38,749 nucleotides of DNA. Origin: Candidatus Woesearchaeota archaeon (GTDB lineage: Archaea; Nanobdellota; Nanobdellia; Woesearchaeales; DATGWN01). The stretch spans positions 1 to 38,749 of the forward strand of contig JBLKOU010000006.1 of the NCBI GenBank assembly GCA_047603125.1. The letters are read 5' to 3'. How positions within the stretch are numbered: position 1 is the first letter of the stretch; the number at the start of each line of letters is the position of its first letter. Made by a program: the position numbers and the translations under genes. Below are positions 15,704-24,084 of this stretch, piece after piece. Under the pieces are notes generated by a model. It was not told where the DNA came from. It worked only from the letters and a program-made list of their open reading frames with translations, and ran no database searches.

Positions 15704-16177
15704 ATGGGATTGGATGTAAAGAAGTATCTTAAACAAATAAACATTTCTTTTATAGTATTCACTCATCCACCAGTCTATACTGTTGAGCAAGCAAAGGAGT
15801 GTAGCAAAGATATAAGAGGAGTACATTCTAAAAATTTGTTTCTCAAAAACAAACATTCTACAAAATTTTATCTTGTGATAATTCCTGACGATCAAAAAGC
15901 GAATATGAAAGAACTTGGGTTTTTAGCAGGAGATTCGTTAACATTTGCAAGTGAGCGTAATTTAAAAGACGTTCTTGGGTTAACGCCGGGTGCAGTTTCA
16001 CCATTTGGTTTGATTAATAACAAAGACAATGCTGTGGAATTGCTTATTCATAAAGCAATATGGGAATCGAAATATTTGAGCTTTCATCCCAACATAAACA
16101 CAGAAACTTTGGAGCTTAAAGGTGAAGATTTTCATAGATTCGTTGAATTACTGGGGATAAAGTATTATATAGTTTAA
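15704..16177 (+). CDS. YbaK/ProX-family aminoacyl-tRNA editing deacylase (PrdX-like)
   Basis: HPPVYTVE, SKNLFLK, LTFAS, LGLTPGAVSPFGL, FHPNIN. Confidence 0.9.
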   Translation: MGLDVKKYLKQINISFIVFTHPPVYTVEQAKECSKDIRGVHSKNLFLKNKHSTKFYLVIIPDDQKANMKELGFLAGDSLTFASERNLKDVLGLTPGAVSPFGLINNKDNAVELLIHKAIWESKYLSFHPNINTETLELKGEDFHRFVELLGIKYYIV

Positions 16178-16191
16178 AAGTTCGCTGTTGT

Positions 16192-18888
16192 TTATCTTCG
16201 TGTATGGAACGGATCTGTTTTTTTCATTTCTTCAAATTCTATTTTGAGAATCATTTTCTTGAATTCCACAAAGATGAGAATACTCAGTGAAATCAAAAAG
16301 CAGACAAACCATTGATATCCGGTTAATGGAACAGTTCCTAATATTGCATTGAAAAAAGGTATCTGGACAGCGATGATGGTACTGACAACTGCAATTGCAA
16401 CACCTGCCAGTAAATAGAGATTTGTAAACGGATTTAAGTCGATGATGGATTCATTCCAGCTTCGTGCATTAAATGCATGCAGGGACATAAATAAGATAAT
16501 GGTGACAAAGAGAAGTGTTTGTGCGTGTTCTAAATCACCAACAGTAACAGCCCAAGTGTAGAGAAGAATAGAACTTAAAACAATTAACGGTACAAGACTA
16601 ATCACATTCATCCATAAATATGGACTTAAGATACCTTCTTTTGGATCTCGAGGTCGCTGTTTCATTGTGTGCGGATGTGGTTTTTCAAAACTGAGTCCAA
16701 TAGCTGGAAATTCATTTGTAATGAGATTAATAAACAAAACCATGAGTGCGGTGAGCGGAAGAACTGTTGAGCCAACAAGACTTGAAATTAAGAGGATGAG
16801 AAGGACAGAAAAATTTCCTACAAGTAAATAATACATGAACTTTCGAATATTCTCATAAATTGTTCGTCCATATTCAACTGCGCGAGCGATTGTTGCAAAA
16901 TTATCATCTTTAAGAACAAGTTCTGATGCTTCTTTTGCAACATCTGTTCCGGAGCGACCCATAGCAATACCGATGTCTGATTTTTTAAGAGCTGGCGCAT
17001 CATTAACACCATCACCAGTCATTGCAACGACATGTCCGCGTTTTTGAAGGACTTGGACGATTTTTAGTTTATGTGCAGGTGTAACCCGTGCAAAAACACT
17101 GACGCGATCAACAAGTGATTCAAGTGTGTGCATATCGTACTCATCAAGTTGTTTTCCTGTTAAAATGATATCATTTGCTTGAAATATTCCTACTTCTGCG
17201 GCAATAGATTTGGCAGTAACCTCATTGTCTCCAGTAATCATAACAACGCGAATACCGGCTTGCTGACATTCGAGGATGGCATCTCTGGCAGTCGGTTCTG
17301 GCGGATCACGAATAGCGACAAGACCGACTAATATTAATTGTTCTTCTGTTTGTTTTGTTGTATAATTTTTTGCAGATTTGAGTGGTTTATATGCGAGTGC
17401 AAGAACGCGAAGCCCCTGAATTGCAAATCGCTGGTTGGCTTCTTGAAAGTCGTGGAGTTGTACTTTGGTTAAAGGAACGATTCGTCCGTTTTTATACATC
17501 TTTGTTGATTTTTGTAAGATAACTTCGGGTGCTCCTTTAACAAATGAATGAACACCTTTTCCTTCTTTGACAACAACACTCATACATTTTTTTGTGGAAT
17601 TAAACGTAAATTCTTTGAGACGTTCTCCCGAACCTTTTTGATAGCGCGCTTTTTTTGCAGCGACAATAAGTGCACATTCGGTGGGTTCTCCATCAGGTAT
17701 CCATTGGTCCTCTTCGTATTTTACATCACTATTATTACAATGCGTCGCTGTTTCAAAGAGTTTTAACAATGTTTTATTTTTTTGTGGATGAACAATTGAT
17801 CCTCGTTGTGTAAAGGAACCTTCCGGTGTATATCCATCTCCTGAAACATCATACTCGCCACTTCCTGTAAATATGTGGTGCACAACCATTTTATTTTGTG
17901 TAATTGTTCCTGTTTTATCCGAGCAAATAACACTGCACGTTCCAAGCGTTTCAACTGCAGGAATTTTTTTTACGATGGCATTTTGTGAAGCCATCTTTCG
18001 AACACCAGTGGCAAGTGTGATTGCAACAACCATTGGAAGACTCTCAGGGATTGCCGCAACAATGATTGCCATAGAAAAAATAAGCATGGTTGGTAGATCA
18101 AAACCATTGTATAAACCAATAAATAAAATACCGATGGAAATACAAATGGCAATAAGGGATATTTGCTTTGTTAATTTATCAAGACGCCTTTGCAAAACTG
18201 TTTTTGTTTGCTCGACATTTTTGAGCAGTGTTGAAATTTTTCCAAATTCTGTCTTCTCTCCAATTTGAACGACAACTGCAAGTCCACTTCCTGCAGTGAT
18301 ATGTGTGCCTGAGAAGACCATATTATGTTGTTCTGATAATGACACTTGTTCAGTAATTGGTTTATTGTGTTTTGTTACAGGAACGGACTCTCCTGTGAGT
18401 GCGGATTCATCCACTTGCAATTCATTTGCAAGAATAAGTCGTGCATCTGCAGGAACAAAACCGCCCCGTGTAAGAACGATAATATCGCCCACTGTCACCT
18501 CCTTTGCTAAAATCTCTTGGCGCTTTCCATCACGAATGACTTTGGTCATTTTGGGTGTCATTTCAAGAAGTGCTTCCATGGATTTAGACGCGCCATATTC
18601 CATTGCAAAGTTGAGCAAAACAATAAAAGCGATGATAATAAGTAAAACAATTGTTTCTATATAATGACTTTGTATATACGTAATTCCTACAGCGATAAGT
18701 AAAATCCACACAATTGAAGAACCAAATTGCTCGAAAAATAACCAGAGAAGCGATTTCTTTTTTGTTTTGACAAATTCATTCAATCCGTATTTTGCTTGTC
18801 TAGTGGGTGCATCTTTAATGCCATCTTGATTTGTTTGGAGCTCAGAATAGACTTGCTCAACAGTCTTTTGATAGTAATGATCACCCAT
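16192..18888 (-). CDS. Type II cation-transporting P-type ATPase
   Basis: LTGES, IPESLP, CSDKTGT, KGAPE, MITGDN, TGDGVNDAPALK. Confidence 0.92.
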   Translation of the reverse strand: MGDHYYQKTVEQVYSELQTNQDGIKDAPTRQAKYGLNEFVKTKKKSLLWLFFEQFGSSIVWILLIAVGITYIQSHYIETIVLLIIIAFIVLLNFAMEYGASKSMEALLEMTPKMTKVIRDGKRQEILAKEVTVGDIIVLTRGGFVPADARLILANELQVDESALTGESVPVTKHNKPITEQVSLSEQHNMVFSGTHITAGSGLAVVVQIGEKTEFGKISTLLKNVEQTKTVLQRRLDKLTKQISLIAICISIGILFIGLYNGFDLPTMLIFSMAIIVAAIPESLPMVVAITLATGVRKMASQNAIVKKIPAVETLGTCSVICSDKTGTITQNKMVVHHIFTGSGEYDVSGDGYTPEGSFTQRGSIVHPQKNKTLLKLFETATHCNNSDVKYEEDQWIPDGEPTECALIVAAKKARYQKGSGERLKEFTFNSTKKCMSVVVKEGKGVHSFVKGAPEVILQKSTKMYKNGRIVPLTKVQLHDFQEANQRFAIQGLRVLALAYKPLKSAKNYTTKQTEEQLILVGLVAIRDPPEPTARDAILECQQAGIRVVMITGDNEVTAKSIAAEVGIFQANDIILTGKQLDEYDMHTLESLVDRVSVFARVTPAHKLKIVQVLQKRGHVVAMTGDGVNDAPALKKSDIGIAMGRSGTDVAKEASELVLKDDNFATIARAVEYGRTIYENIRKFMYYLLVGNFSVLLILLISSLVGSTVLPLTALMVLFINLITNEFPAIGLSFEKPHPHTMKQRPRDPKEGILSPYLWMNVISLVPLIVLSSILLYTWAVTVGDLEHAQTLLFVTIILFMSLHAFNARSWNESIIDLNPFTNLYLLAGVAIAVVSTIIAVQIPFFNAILGTVPLTGYQWFVCFLISLSILIFVEFKKMILKIEFEEMKKTDPFHTRR

Positions 18889-18934
18889 AACGAATTTAGA
18901 CCACTCTTCCTTTAAAAATACTTATAACTATCCT

Positions 18935-19324
18935 TTAGTGATGATAAGTGTGCATGTTTTTTGTCTTTGTTTGATCGCTCACGCCTCGTACTTCTAATTG
19001 GAAGCTGGTTATTGTTCCAGGAATAATTTTTTTTAAAAAATCAAGTGAATCCACATCAAAATGAATAATTTTTCCCGATTTTTCACAGATATAATGACAA
19101 TGATTTTTCTGTTTAGAATAGATTGTTCGCCGGTTGCATTGATATGCGTGTAAGTGTTTTTCATTTGCCTGTTCTTTTAAAAATCGATACACTGTTGCAA
19201 GGCCGATTTCTGAATCTTTTTTACGGGCTCTCTCAAGAACATCTTCAGCATTAAAGAATTCTTTAAATGAAGCAATGGTTGTCTGTAATAATTCTTTTTG
19301 TCGTGTTTGTCTGGATTTTGCCAT
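18935..19324 (-). CDS. Fur/Zur-family metal-responsive repressor
   Basis: RQTRQK...AEDV...IGLATVYRFL...HCHYICEKSGKI...LEVRG; SD GAGGTG before ATG 19324. Confidence 0.88.
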   Translation of the reverse strand: MAKSRQTRQKELLQTTIASFKEFFNAEDVLERARKKDSEIGLATVYRFLKEQANEKHLHAYQCNRRTIYSKQKNHCHYICEKSGKIIHFDVDSLDFLKKIIPGTITSFQLEVRGVSDQTKTKNMHTYHH

Positions 19325-19343
19325 GATAATCACACCTCTTAAT

Positions 19344-19362
19344 GATAATGAAAATCATTAAC
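19344..19362. promoter_or_regulatory. Fur-family operator (Fur box)
   Basis: GATAATGAAAATCATTAAC matches the classical Fur box GATAATGATAATCATTATC at 17/19; lies within the larger palindrome 19341-19365 and abuts TATA 19364-19371 between fur and the divergent operon. Confidence 0.85.
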
Positions 19363-19393
19363 ATTTAAAAAGTATTCGTTATTACTTCAAGAT

Positions 19394-19711
19394 ATGTCGC
19401 AACAACAGTACCCACTTATTGCAATGCCATATGTCTTTGAGACAATGACAAAAAGGTATGAACACGAACAGCAATACCTGCGTACACTTGATGCGGTGCT
19501 TGGCTTGCTTTCTTCTTCTCAAAGGCTTCCTTGTCTAACAACAATTGTTTCGCCGATGTATACATTAGCAAGCAAATATAGACAAATGGGCGAGGACACA
19601 TTAGCTGGTGATTGGACTTCCCTTGCCAAACTCGTCATAGATTCGCATCCTTGTCAAGATTGTGCACAGGCACGAGTGAAAAAATTACAAAAGAAAGAAG
19701 GTTTACGATGA
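19394..19711 (+). CDS. Hypothetical protein with HPCxxC motif (105 aa)
   Basis: Starts 30 bp after TATA; ATGA overlap with the GTPase gene; SHPCQDC. Confidence 0.7.
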
Positions 19712-20946
19712 AAAAACTACCAGTAACTGTACTATCTGGCTTTTTAGGGTCAGGGAAAACAACGCTACTTAACCATATTTTAACAAATAGGCATGGATTA
19801 AAGGTTGCCGTTATTGTCAATGATATGTCTGAGATTAATATTGATGGCCAAATAGTTGAAAAGGGTGAAGCCAAGTTATCTCGAACTGATGAAAAGCTTG
19901 TACAAATGCAAAATGGCTGTATTTGTTGCACATTGCGAGAAGATTTACTTAAAGAAGTTGCAGATCTTGCAAAAGAAGGAAAATATGATTATCTTGTAAT
20001 AGAATCTTCAGGAATTTCTGAGCCGCTTCCTGTTGCAGCAACATTTACATTTGATATGGAAGATGGAAATCCTCTCAAAGATATAACACAACTCGATACT
20101 ATGGTAACCGTTATTGATGCGGGTTCTTTTTTTGATTATTATGACTCAACAAAATCACTCAAGGATATAAAACAACAAGTCAATGAAGAGGATGAGCGCA
20201 CATTAATAGACCTCCTTGTTGATCAAATTGAGTTTGCCAATGTCATTTTATTGAACAAATGTGATTTAGTGGACGAAAACACAAAAAAACAAATAAAAGC
20301 AATTTTACGCTCCCTTAACACTGATGCAAAAATTATAGAAACAACACGGGGAGGGGTGGATATCAAAGAAATTTTACACACGAAGCTATTTGACTTTGAA
20401 AAAGCATCACAAGCTTCAGGTTGGGCAAAGGAACTTCAAGGAAGCGGAATAGAGCATACACCGGAAACAGAAGAATATGGAATATCGAGTTTTACATTTA
20501 CTTCTCGAAAACCTTTTTCTCCAAAACGACTCTGGGATTTCTTTCATAAAAAACATCCGGGTCTTGTTCGAGCAAAGGGATATTTCTGGCTTGCAACGCG
20601 AGATAACGATGCCGGTTTTTTTTCACTTGCTTCTCGGCTAAAAGAATATAGCTTTGCAGGAAAATGGTGGAAGAGTGTTCCAAAACAAAAGTGGCCAGAA
20701 GATGCAAAAGAGATGATTGAAAGTGTTTGGCAAGAGCCTTACGGGGACTCACGACAAGAATTAGTGTTTATAGGGGTCGGATTGGATCAAGAAGTCATGA
20801 AAAAAGAACTTGAACAATGTCTTTTGAATTCTGATGAATTACAGTCTGATTGGAAATCCTTTGAAGATCCGTTTCCTTCTTGGAATCAGCAGGCGCAAGA
20901 ATTAGAAGATGCGCTCAAAGTACATGAAGATACATCCAAAAATTAA
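19708..20946 (+). CDS. COG0523/CobW-family zinc metallochaperone GTPase (ZigA/YciC-like)
   Basis: [74 protein letters not shown]. Confidence 0.95.
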
Positions 20947-21460
20947 GAAGCTTGGTTTTACTGCTTATGAACTGGGTTGTGAAATAAAACAATCTCTTTT
21001 TGGCTCATCTTCGGCCATTTTGGAGAGAACGTCACGTTTTGCAAAAGAGGAAGCTATGTTTTTTTCACGGAGTAAGCCTGTTTTGTTTGTTGGCAGTGGA
21101 TATTATCCTGAAAGTGCACTTGCTTTACGTCAAGATGGATTTACAGTAACACTTTTGGACAAAAACCGTTTTGCTCTTTATTGCTCAAAAAAATTTAGAT
21201 TTTCACAGACACGTGCAGATGCACAAACCTTTAACTACCATGATTATGATCAAATTATTGTCGCAGTCATGGTTAATAAAAAGGAATTGGTACTTCGTCA
21301 AATTTTACTAACGAATCCTGATGCAATAATTATACTAAGAAATGTGAACGATAACACCTATTATACACCTGCCAAAGAAATTCCAAAACAGCTAAAAACT
21401 ATGCACGTGATTACGCAGCCAGAAACGATTATGCATGCGCATGTTCTCAAAAAAATCTAA
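20924..21460 (+). CDS. Nicotianamine-synthase-like SAM-dependent enzyme (catalytic domain only)
   Basis: KEEA...[14 protein letters not shown]...TLLDKN...ADAQ...[17 protein letters not shown]...IILRN follows the NAS/CntL layout (E..., FIGSGPLPLT, DVxxxAALxxxK, xxR); overlaps the GTPase stop. Confidence 0.6.
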
Positions 21461-24084
21461 TGCACTTCAATCCATTTAAAGTGATTATTAAGCAATTTAA
21501 ACACATCAAAGACGGCAATAATAATAAGAGAAAGTAAACCTGCATAGAGCCAGTATATTCCTGGAACAGGTGCAGTCTCAAAAATGATGGCAAGTGGTGT
21601 GTACACAACTAAGAGAGTTATGAGTATTGCAATAATCGAGGCTGCAAGTAAATAGACATTTGCATTAAGGGGAAGACGTGTAACGGGATATCGAAACGAG
21701 CGAAAATTAAATGCATTTGTCACACCAAAAAAGACAATGGTAATAAATGCAAATGTTTGTGCCTGTTCGAGTGGCAGCTCTAATACATTGAGCATGTAAA
21801 CAAAAGAAATAACTGCAGTTATTATGACAGTAGCAGTTGCTAAAAAGAGCATGACGGCAAGATGTTTATCAACTAGTTGTGATCCTTTTCGTGGTTGTTT
21901 TTGAAGGACATCAAAGGATGGTGGATTAAATCCAAGCATTATTGCGGTAAGTTCATCGGAAAGTAAATTGATAAAGAGTATCTGCATTGCAACAAGTGGA
22001 AGAGGAAGCCCCATCATAATTGCCACAAAGACAAAGCCTAATTGTGCGAGTGTGATTGAAATTTGGTATACGGAGACTTTTTGAATATTCTTAAAAATTG
22101 TTCTTCCTTCAACAATAGCGCTGACAATCGTTGCAAAATTATCATCTTTTAATATCAGATCGGAGACTTCTCGTGAAACATCTGTTCCATTTTTTCCCAT
22201 TGCAATTCCAATATGAGATTCCTTTAGTGCAGGTGCATCGTTTACACCATCGCCAGTCATACTGACAATTTCACCTTGCTCTTTGAGTATTCGAACAATT
22301 CGAATTTTATGCTCGGGTCGTACTCGTGCAAAAATTTGGATACTGCCGATCTGATCTTTTAATTCTTCATCAGTCATGTCATCAAGCTCAAAACCTTCAA
22401 TAACGCGACCATGTAATCCGACCTGCTTAGCGACTGCGCCAGCCGTATTTTTATTATCCCCTGTAAGTATTTTTACTGCGATACCTGATTGCATACATTC
22501 GTGAATTGCCACCTTTGCCTCATCGCGTGGTGGATCTTCCATAACTGCAAATCCTAAGAATGTTAATCCTGTTTCTAGCTGCTTTTTGACTGTCGATTTT
22601 GTTTGTTTTTGTGCGAGTGCTAACACGCGGTAGCTTTGTGTTGTGTATGAGTCAACAATTGCAAGAAATTCTTTTTTCTTTTCATTAGTGAGTGCCCTAA
22701 CTTTATTTTTGTATCGGTAATGCGTACAACGATTCAGAAGTATCTCGGGGGCTCCTTTTGCATAGACATTGTTTTGTTTTTGTTCTTTTACAAGAACACT
22801 CATTGTTTTATTATGAGAACTAAAAGGGATTTCTTCAAGACGATCTGTAGTAAATGTGTCTTTGTAAAGCTGTGCTTTTGCACCTAAAACGAGCAATGCG
22901 GCTTCTGTTTGTGAGCCTCGAATTTTGTATTCATTACTGTCCAAATGCTTTTCAATGCCTGCGTCATTACAAATAATCCCTGCTTTGATGAGTGTGTGTA
23001 CATGGGGATAGGAATTTGGATCAATCTTTTTTTTCCCGATAGTAAAATCGCCGTTTCCTATATATCCTGCGCCACTAATTGCTACTGTATGTTCGGGTGT
23101 GAATAGTTCGCGAACAGTCATTTGTCCCTTTGTAATTGTCCCTGTTTTATCCGAGCAAATAACGGTTGTTTCTCCCAATGTTTCAATAATTGCCATACGA
23201 TTGACAATGGCATTTTTTTTGGCCATTCTTCGTGCACCGCCTGCAAGCGTGGTAATTAAAACAACGGGAAACCCTTCAGGAAACGCAGAAACGCTCAGTG
23301 CTATAACAACGATGAGAATTTCAATAGCAAGTTCTGTTGTCAGTGGTGCATCCCGAAATGCCATGACAAATCCTGTAATAATTGCAAAAAAAAGTGCGTT
23401 AATGGACATATATTTAACAATAGTATTGACTTTTTGCTGAAGTGGGATATCTTTTTGTGTTTGTGTAATCATACCTGCTATTTTTCCAAATTCCGTATTC
23501 ATGCCAGTATGAATGACTTTAATTTTACAATGTCCATTTACAACATATGTACCCATGAATACTTTATGTTTATCAATGATTTTTCCAGAATGCTCGCTTG
23601 GCGTAACAGTTTTATGTACTTCCTTTGCCTCTCCAGTAAGCATACTCTCATTCACTCGTAATTCTTTTTGTTCTAAAATTATTCCATCTGCAGGAACTTT
23701 ATCGCCCGTTCGCAAGATAACAATATCTCCGGGAACTAAATGATGTGATTCGACTTCTTGTTCTTTTCCATCACGAATAACAAGTGAGGTCTGTGTAATC
23801 ATATTTTTGAGTGCAGCAATGGACTTTTCTGCTCTATACTCCATGAAAAAGCCTACAACAACGACTACAACAATAACACCGACAATTGTGTAGGCTGTAA
23901 TTTCTTTTCCAACAAAAAATGAGAGAATCGCAGCAAATGTAAGAATATATATGAGAAAATTTGATTTTATCTGTCGAAAAAAAATTTTGAGCGCAGAATT
24001 TTTGCCTTTTTCATCTATTCGGTTCTCTCCAAATTGATGTAAAAGCTCACGAGCCTTTTTTTGTGTCAGGCCATTATATGACAT
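21457..24084 (-). CDS. Type II cation-transporting P-type ATPase (second paralog)
   Basis: LTGEA, FPEGFP, CSDKTGT, KGAPE, LTGDN, TGDGVNDAPALK. Confidence 0.92.
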   Translation of the reverse strand: MSYNGLTQKKARELLHQFGENRIDEKGKNSALKIFFRQIKSNFLIYILTFAAILSFFVGKEITAYTIVGVIVVVVVVGFFMEYRAEKSIAALKNMITQTSLVIRDGKEQEVESHHLVPGDIVILRTGDKVPADGIILEQKELRVNESMLTGEAKEVHKTVTPSEHSGKIIDKHKVFMGTYVVNGHCKIKVIHTGMNTEFGKIAGMITQTQKDIPLQQKVNTIVKYMSINALFFAIITGFVMAFRDAPLTTELAIEILIVVIALSVSAFPEGFPVVLITTLAGGARRMAKKNAIVNRMAIIETLGETTVICSDKTGTITKGQMTVRELFTPEHTVAISGAGYIGNGDFTIGKKKIDPNSYPHVHTLIKAGIICNDAGIEKHLDSNEYKIRGSQTEAALLVLGAKAQLYKDTFTTDRLEEIPFSSHNKTMSVLVKEQKQNNVYAKGAPEILLNRCTHYRYKNKVRALTNEKKKEFLAIVDSYTTQSYRVLALAQKQTKSTVKKQLETGLTFLGFAVMEDPPRDEAKVAIHECMQSGIAVKILTGDNKNTAGAVAKQVGLHGRVIEGFELDDMTDEELKDQIGSIQIFARVRPEHKIRIVRILKEQGEIVSMTGDGVNDAPALKESHIGIAMGKNGTDVSREVSDLILKDDNFATIVSAIVEGRTIFKNIQKVSVYQISITLAQLGFVFVAIMMGLPLPLVAMQILFINLLSDELTAIMLGFNPPSFDVLQKQPRKGSQLVDKHLAVMLFLATATVIITAVISFVYMLNVLELPLEQAQTFAFITIVFFGVTNAFNFRSFRYPVTRLPLNANVYLLAASIIAILITLLVVYTPLAIIFETAPVPGIYWLYAGLLSLIIIAVFDVFKLLNNHFKWIEVH

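Follow-up and report, generated by a model that had tools for sequence, protein, structure and literature searches.

The window analysed here, the 38,749-nt contig C39 of a Candidatus Woesearchaeota archaeon, carries a Fur-family repressor gene divergent from three overlapping genes, which code for an orphan protein with an HPCxxC motif, a COG0523 GTPase and a shortened protein of the nicotianamine synthase (NAS) family. Judged by its homologues, profile and predicted fold, this last protein is kin to NAS and CntL, not to methyltransferases. We tentatively read it as an aminocarboxypropyl transferase that would make a short intracellular chelator within a zinc-limitation operon, a reading that seems to us possible rather than probable. 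The source genome is 1.12 Mb in 70 contigs, with a marker completeness of 100%, and all four open reading frames (ORFs) lie where a preliminary description of the window had drawn them, Table 1. The EF-1alpha of the source genome is 66% identical to that of a genome recorded as Woesearchaeota, so that the lineage is Woesearchaeota-type, in line with the preliminary description.

Kinship and active site of the shortened NAS protein

On its own the NAS-like protein has no Pfam match at E<=1 and stays below the cut-off of Pfam NAS (PF03059), and a direct phmmer search against PDB sequences gave chance matches only. An exhaustive phmmer search found 34 homologues (best E 1e-11, identity 28-40%), 29 of which match Pfam NAS. 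A profile of 26 homologues finds MtNAS, the thermonicotianamine synthase of Methanothermobacter thermautotrophicus (PDB 3FPE/3FPJ), at 1.5e-31 and CntL at 4e-24, far ahead of other PDB entries. The AlphaFold2 (AF2) model, built with the NAS homologue alignment (pLDDT 93), has MtNAS as its best structural match (Z 19.6, root-mean-square deviation 2.8, 180 aligned residues), followed by CntL (17.9) and the best methyltransferase (16.1). In Foldseek the first 11 listed rows are all CntL or MtNAS (E 5e-10 to 3e-9) and the next is at 4e-7. The independent model in the Atlas has NAS-labelled clusters at TM 0.74-0.85, in agreement with the neighbours of the AF2 model. The fold is a Rossmann class I S-adenosylmethionine (SAM) domain with MtNAS and CntL nearest. 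The preliminary description had preferred NAS/CntL kinship and proposed the Foldseek comparison as a check, with closeness to ordinary methyltransferases as what would undo it; since homologues, profile and fold are all nearest to MtNAS and CntL, the kinship is borne out and that refutation fails at this level.

Within the family, the protein reaches 109 bits with its own group (18 members), 67-70 bits with each of three other groups and 20 bits with a profile of two CntL sequences. This test is partly circular, as every sequence except the plasmid references had been retrieved by means of the protein itself. In a tree of 48 rows minus four that the motif pattern missed (P0023, P0032, P0036, G244), it lies inside an unstarred 22-row group (90/70), its exact place unsure. 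The nearest relatives share a signature of ExxxE, RTFxFAxxE, GSGPFPES and IxHS. The length of about 178 aa and the GSGYYPES motif given in the preliminary description are both present; the motif is not peculiar to this protein, as the PES/HES ending is part of the group signature (consensus GSGPFPES) and two relatives read GSGYxPES.

Equivalent residues were read from the register with MtNAS, those of AtNAS1 by way of MtNAS E81. In MtNAS, E81 and Y107 are the catalytic pair that deprotonates the acceptor amine (PMC10491745, from the accessible part of the paper). The Glu is kept as E25 (AtNAS1 E77) and is invariant in the aligned group members (18/18). The Tyr (AtNAS1 Y106) is not kept: T41 stands in its place, and Thr is found in 16 of the 18. 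Two CntL proteins encoded in cntLM operons also lack the Tyr, and its loss therefore does not by itself abolish transfer. Also kept, in favour of a working transferase, are E48 (MtNAS E114), the GSG motif, D84, A119, K125, R144 and Y152, which include the Gly-rich SAM motif and the Lys, Arg and Tyr of the MtNAS C-terminal domain. The enzyme differs from MtNAS, to which it is 18% identical, by Y107 to Thr, L136 to Glu and G77 to Glu and by a His in the N256 region. E21 falls at AtNAS1 E73, so that by this register both the E73 and E77 positions are Glu, an ExxxE pair shared with plant and fungal NAS; AtNAS1 Y106, the VGMD motif and the N-terminal helices are absent. E73, E77, Y106 and VGMD are essential in AtNAS1, and E73 is typical of NAS enzymes that make nicotianamine, with neither MtNAS nor CntL having it (PMC10248798, in the part available).

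The N-terminal part of the lid is missing. The model aligns to MtNAS 60-264 only, about 59 N-terminal residues being lost, and no lid remnant was found in any forward frame of 19301-21100 nor elsewhere among the genome ORFs. All deletions are in frame, with zero stops or frameshifts. Highly conserved columns are kept at 17 of 21, against 21 of 94 variable ones, and full-length relatives range from 76 to 100%. This pattern argues for continued selection or recent relaxation, the two not being separable by it. Relatives shortened to 223 and 230 aa are also found, as are, in the Atlas, NAS-like clusters of 162-215 aa.

The stretch is present in eight lake-water DNA runs from two studies; no RNA runs containing it are listed. 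The junction between the GTPase and NAS genes is bridged by contigs from three of the four runs examined, one of them possibly the source of the window itself, with zero differing letters and zero indels. The short NAS form is therefore real and not an assembly error; a frameshifted GTPase-NAS fusion is ruled out as well, by the bridging contigs together with a frame search of the locus. The NAS gene has zero variants across the four runs, so no dN/dS could be obtained. With a genome-trained hexamer model all four frames have coding scores of 0.29-0.60, compared with -0.29 to -1.66 for the other frames of the four genes and a maximum of 0.30 among 89 shadow ORFs, NAS (0.29) and Fur (0.31) being at the low end of the range.

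Table 1. Features of the predicted zinc-limitation locus, in window coordinates.
Feature	Position	Strand	Evidence
Zur-like Fur-family repressor gene	18935..19324	-	Pfam FUR E=3e-16; 129 aa from ATG 19324; in-frame GTG at 19333
Predicted operator, imperfect 21-bp palindrome TAATGATAATGAAAATCATTA	19340..19360	.	Family matrix, 22.9 bits
Putative TATA-like element TTTAAAAAG, after the operator and ahead of the operon	19364..19372	+	Read from sequence
Orphan, 105 aa, HPCQDC near C-terminus	19394..19711	+	Coding score 0.38
COG0523 G3E GTPase, ZigA/YeiR-like, 412 aa	19708..20946	+	Pfam cobW 2e-55, CobW_C 2e-22
NAS-family protein, shortened to 178 aa, or 183 aa with ATG 20909 as start	20924..21460 (alternative start 20909)	+	Homologues, profile, fold

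Regulator, operon partners and related loci

The repressor gene is separated by 69 bp from the divergent operon. Of 401 genomes of the order, 89 encode a close orthologue of the regulator, the source genome counted. Among the 29 best-scoring orthologue loci, 13 are beside ZIP, seven beside ZnuA and two beside COG0523 genes (22/29), and for this reason we mark the subfamily as Zur-like, its metal specificity being a prediction from gene context. The upstream regions of the orthologues have a palindrome in common, with the consensus TATTGATAATCATTATCAATA. The seed pattern was picked by visual inspection of these regions together with the site in the window, whereas the matrix combines 27 sites from other genomes and excludes both the window and two NAS loci. 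The site in Table 1 has the top score in the genome; one of 50 shuffled genomes reached 22 bits or more. Second comes a site of 20.2-20.3 bits on contig C22, placed 34 nt ahead of znuABC. Here six of 50 shuffled genomes reached at least 20 bits, so that the score alone is not significant and the position is what counts.

Zur proteins are expected to hold a four-Cys structural zinc site. This regulator shows CEKS and GVSDQT where the Cys pairs are expected, and it has no C-terminal CxxC, a motif that most orthologues retain; three of 28 other orthologues compared are likewise entirely without the C-terminal Cys pair. The other marks of Zur, a Fur fold and an operator before zinc-uptake genes, are present. 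By the archaeal spacing rule from TATA box to start, TTTAAAAAG is the putative archaeal promoter of the operon and the transcript would be leaderless. The regulator is predicted to bind the palindrome and to repress. Together with the ZigA-type GTPase, the Zur-like regulator and the operator shared with znuABC sustain the zinc-starvation context proposed in the preliminary description.

Elsewhere in the genome, an intergenic operator-like site (G000:C70:727) precedes a seryl-tRNA synthetase-like gene by about 400 nt; its score of 16.9 bits falls inside the spread of the shuffled maxima. In many Zur operons of the order (L074, L076, L077, L078, L085, L072) the ZIP gene is followed by a small predicted lipoprotein with a DHDHDGDG motif and a tail rich in His and Asp, possibly a surface zinc-binding peptide.

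The GTPase matches the NCBIfam ZigA model NF038288 over its full length (4-390) with 588.2 bits, 12 bits under the cut-off of 600. It has both cobW domains and an intact GCICC (CxCC) motif, and by sequence we assign it as a ZigA-type zinc metallochaperone. In GCICC, CobW_C and a position downstream of a Fur-family operator it is like the Zur-regulated COG0523 proteins ZigA, YciC and YeiR, from which the case differs by its host, a Woesearchaeota-type archaeon. Such a place downstream of Fur-family (Zur) operators has been described in bacteria, and the archaeal genomes available in 2009 held no Fur/Zur homologue, according to the accessible part of a paper of that year (PMC2770081).

The orphan stop overlaps the GTPase start by 4 nt (ATGA), and the NAS start overlaps the GTPase end by 38 nt in the 183-aa form or 23 nt in the 178-aa form. 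The orphan is modelled as four helices, weakly folded (pLDDT 58), and may hold a CxxC-His metal site. No family, homologue or specific fold match was found for it, the Atlas and Foldseek giving only generic helical bundles; none of two candidates was a homologue, and 400 other genomes gave two weak matches, one full of stops. It is not the missing NAS lid (-1.2 bits against the lid profile, with 221 of 345 reported shuffles scoring as high). It is also not a C-terminal partner of the CobW proteins of the Candidate Phyla Radiation (CPR), with no BLASTP alignment and -2.9 bits against a three-sequence profile. The CobW C-terminal domain of the fusions at loci L053, L054 and L058 was not found in the source genome, and the partner domain gave one weak match in 300 genomes of the class of G403. 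The complex prediction of the NAS protein with the orphan scored 0.00 and is not counted as evidence. In G268 a different orphan, of 135 aa, takes the equivalent slot between Zur and ZigA.

The neighbourhoods of the NAS group were compared at 12 genome loci, four metagenome loci (three repeating genome ones) and one locus from a class survey, which give eight independent contexts; the scan needed exact motif words, and kin are not independent. A Fur-family or NikR gene stands beside NAS in six of the eight, which ties the group to a metal sensor. At three of them, G1016, L060 and L057, the regulator is of the Zur-like subfamily and has the operator (22.9-25.3 bits). It is directly divergent from NAS in G1016 and L060, where the latter NAS is a NAS-GNAT fusion; L057 has the order Zur, His-rich membrane protein, 230-aa NAS, His-rich protein and ZIP, with one gene between Zur and NAS. 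The L057 genome has an archaeal EF-1alpha, 73% identical to that of the source genome, although its record is labelled alphaproteobacterial. A bacterial Fur is beside NAS in L058 and in the related trio L052-L054, and NikR is divergent from NAS in L056. A long CobW fusion follows Fur-NAS in L053, L054 and L058, with znuABC also in L053. The window shares with these three loci the NAS group, a Fur-family regulator and a COG0523 gene, and differs by a canonical ZigA in place of the long fusion, a shortened NAS and an unrelated orphan. No metal gene is beside NAS in the remaining two contexts, L047-L051 and L055. By eye, the L052-L054 genomes, labelled gammaproteobacterial, look CPR-like in gene content. 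The unpublished genomes G215 and G140 underlie none of the claims made here.

The NAS gene is rare. It was found in five of 401 genomes of the order at E<=1e-13 and in four of 401 of an overlapping class sample at E<=1e-9. At E<=1e-3 the profile hits 25 of the 401 order genomes; among the 20 weaker ones, G101 was inspected and has a methyltransferase-like gene. Viral contigs held no relatives, and phage records gave one unannotated Pseudomonas phage record.

Other arrangements were seen as well. NAS is fused to a GNAT acetyltransferase in P0019 and P0022, and to a long N-terminal region, CoA-ligase-like by eye and with no Pfam match, in P0020 and P0029; among P0023, P0031 and P0032 there are short NAS-like domains fused to FeoA. 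In L043 (G098:C7, 4579-15213), from a Woesearchaeota-type genome, a NAS of 268 aa that has Phe in place of the catalytic Tyr is found inside a NiFe-hydrogenase maturation cluster with NikR, and its product may be a nickel chelator. In L045 (G279:C99, 256-4063) a NAS-like gene is followed by an asparagine synthase-like amidotransferase, a diaminopimelate (DAP)-epimerase-like gene and a convergent EamA exporter, which looks like a fuller small-molecule pathway. L097 (G268:C29, 3429-10920) has a second Zur-regulated operon, with an orphan, ZigA, a CooC/MinD-like ATPase, a second CobW, a pyridoxal phosphate-dependent decarboxylase (DAP/ornithine type), a CysK-like PALP-rhodanese enzyme and ZnuA; similar pieces are found in L099 (G351) and L100 (G141). 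The decarboxylase and PALP pair presumably resembles the staphyloferrin B precursor enzymes, and the operon is a candidate for a different zinc-chelator pathway.

The window locus itself is bracketed by two paralogous P-type cation ATPase genes on the same strand (16192-18888 and 21457-24084), of Cation_ATPase_N/C and not heavy-metal type by Pfam, and its placement looks like an insertion between tandem copies. With these ATPases as neighbours, the earlier remark that no opine dehydrogenase or ABC importer is adjacent proved correct. A ProX/YbaK tRNA-editing gene (15704-16177) is 2.8 kb from the cluster, and another adjoins the L057 cluster. Rfam gave no matches within 18000-22500. On contig C60 (1-10431) of the source genome an open frame of at least 3477 aa starts with what appear by eye to be BspA-like surface repeats.

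Proposed reaction and competing readings

In the scheme that we infer, which covers repression, reaction, product and product location, the Zur-like protein would, with zinc present, sit on the palindrome beside the TATA box and repress its own gene, the operon and the distant znuABC. When zinc is low, all three operon proteins (orphan, ZigA-type GTPase and short NAS-family enzyme) would be made, and ZnuABC would import zinc. The enzyme would move a 3-amino-3-carboxypropyl group from SAM to an amine, either of an amino acid or of another SAM-derived unit, with Glu25 (MtNAS Glu81) as the base and methylthioadenosine (MTA) released. Because the back of the lid is missing, there would probably be a single transfer or the release of a short product. 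This product most likely stays in the cytoplasm, because no exporter, opine dehydrogenase or chelate importer was found, and it may serve there, alongside ZnuABC and the GTPase, to buffer or shuttle metal, with zinc buffered for the GTPase. SAM would be supplied by a host or by an unassembled gene.

Several results weigh against this scheme. SAM synthetase was not found in the genome with two Pfam models, archaeal and bacterial (controls positive), and tblastn with the MetK of three relatives gave nothing in the genome at E<=1; MetK is present in four of five other NAS-bearing archaeal genomes tested. A PNP/MTA nucleosidase or phosphorylase was also not found in the genome (control positive), and NAS enzymes are inhibited by MTA (PMC10248798, same part). 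The NAS gene is in none of seven same-family genomes (84-96% complete), one of which, G007, has ZigA without NAS. In the window protein 83 consensus columns are gapped, compared with 1-45 in 18 relatives, and its end branch in the tree is 2.0 with a median of 0.88. An assay of any member of the NAS group was not found in the literature searched. The genome encodes other SAM users, the diphthamide enzymes and a radical-SAM activase, therefore either SAM is imported or the SAM synthetase gene is unassembled.

Much of this also favours a reading that we find unlikely but take seriously, in which the NAS gene, at the end of a working Zur-ZigA operon, has become a remnant that is decaying or whose product is catalytically dead, ZigA having been placed before a former Zur-NAS pair and the N-terminus lost. 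The long branch, the missing lid helices with several internal deletions and the failure to find MetK and an MTA-clearing enzyme all agree with it, as does ZigA without NAS in G007. In other archaea Zur directly faces a NAS of at least 250 aa, and in the window the regulator has also lost a CxxC and the coding score of NAS is low. A decaying gene fits less well with the absence of stops and frameshifts, the in-frame deletions, the 17 of 21 conserved columns, and the shortened relatives and Atlas clusters; moreover, with other SAM users in the genome, SAM must reach the cell anyway. The preliminary description had listed a decaying fragment as a refutation, and the result is divided: the lost lid part and the fast evolution speak for it, the conserved columns against it.

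The preliminary description itself had proposed a zinc-scavenging metallophore pathway. A nicotianamine- or opine-type metallophore that is secreted to scavenge external zinc and then re-imported would agree with the NAS kinship and the zinc regulon, ZnuABC under the shared operator could take up the released zinc, and the group member in L053 is upstream of a CobW fusion and znuABC. The genome gives it little room, as neither an exporter or metallophore importer nor SAM synthetase or an MTA-clearing enzyme was found, and we now hold it improbable. EamA, SBP_bac_5 and ZIP were not found genome-wide (controls positive; MFS and MATE exporters were not searched for); the genome-wide search for CntM (PF10100) was blank, with a control that also gave no signal, and none is adjacent. 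Described zincophore clusters almost always combine NAS, CntM, import and efflux genes (PMC7438024, from the part accessible). An enzyme that uses SAM only, either cyclising it to azetidine-2-carboxylate (AZE) or assembling nicotianamine, is distinctly improbable. In its favour are the Glu at AtNAS1 E73, conserved in nicotianamine-making NAS (PMC10248798, same part), the existence of AZE synthases among CPR bacteria and in lake habitats (PMC11794875, in its accessible part), and the tRNA-editing genes near the cluster and next to that of L057. However, the Tyr essential in AtNAS1 is Thr here and VGMD is absent, AzeJ/VioH is not among the matches listed in the fold and profile searches, and the tRNA-editing gene was found at only one of 12 other loci tested.

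The loss of the lid could instead open the acceptor site to a macromolecule, such as the orphan, the GTPase or RNA, the aminocarboxypropyl group then serving as a metal-binding or regulatory modification. The SAM-binding and catalytic residues are retained and the three genes are tightly coupled, and unrelated enzymes are known that place this group on RNA and peptides (PMC10491745, same part). But a precedent in the NAS family was not found in the literature searched, and full-length group members in the same regulon favour a shared small-molecule role, which makes this very improbable. For an ordinary class I methyltransferase speak the Rossmann methyltransferase fold and Atlas neighbours with mixed NAS/PCMT/Methyltransf labels. 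The CntL and MtNAS rows at the head of the Foldseek list, the Pfam NAS matches of most homologues and the kept NAS-specific E81 helix leave it hardly any probability.

Comparison with known systems and meaning

The enzyme would work like MtNAS and CntL but departs from canonical NAS at the Tyr and the lid; what the window adds is a predicted Zur operator in an archaeon and a NAS-family enzyme without its lid. MtNAS works without CntM, and the window enzyme is set apart from it also by its context of a Zur-like regulator and a COG0523 GTPase. With CntL of the cntKLM operons (staphylopine, pseudopaline, yersinopine) it shares the fold, the zinc-limitation context and, in the two aligned, the lack of the catalytic Tyr, but it scores far higher with its own group. 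The marks of a Cnt opine-metallophore locus, an adjacent CntM and an exporter with a chelate importer within a few genes, are missing.

Among the openly readable papers listed in our searches, none dealt with NAS or a Zur regulon of Woesearchaeota or CPR, although the 2020 review of NAS evolution by Laffont and Arnoux could cover some sequences. Among the matches listed, "nicotianamine synthase" occurs in papers on these lineages only in the AZE paper (PMC11794875), and the accessible parts of PMC11672702, PMC12454661 and bioRxiv 10.64898/2026.08.27.747422 have nothing on these lineages.

The NAS-like enzymes characterised so far are from plants, fungi, one methanogen and cnt-type pathogens. 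The present group differs at catalytic positions, with Thr for Tyr107 and added Glu residues, and in CPR bacteria and Woesearchaeota it is accompanied by metal sensors. Because of these differences, the adjoining metal sensors and the missing export and import partners, the group product is likely to be a new small chelator with an intracellular job. A more specific picture, which we regard as quite unlikely, is that of a lid-less but active minimal NAS in a SAM-auxotrophic episymbiotic archaeon, turning host SAM into a hitherto undescribed chelator that passes zinc on to the COG0523 chaperone, or using it to aminocarboxypropylate a protein partner. If true, the enzyme would be the smallest working NAS, and the locus would represent the archaea in a so far unstudied module of ultra-small prokaryotes, Zur/NikR-NAS-COG0523, which has an active-site signature of its own (ExxxE, RT, PES, IxH). 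The significance is tempered by the chance that the window copy is decaying. This copy tests how much lid a NAS needs, and the Zur-like regulon, with a defined 21-bp predicted operator, offers a direct way into the zinc homeostasis of an archaeal order that is uncultured.

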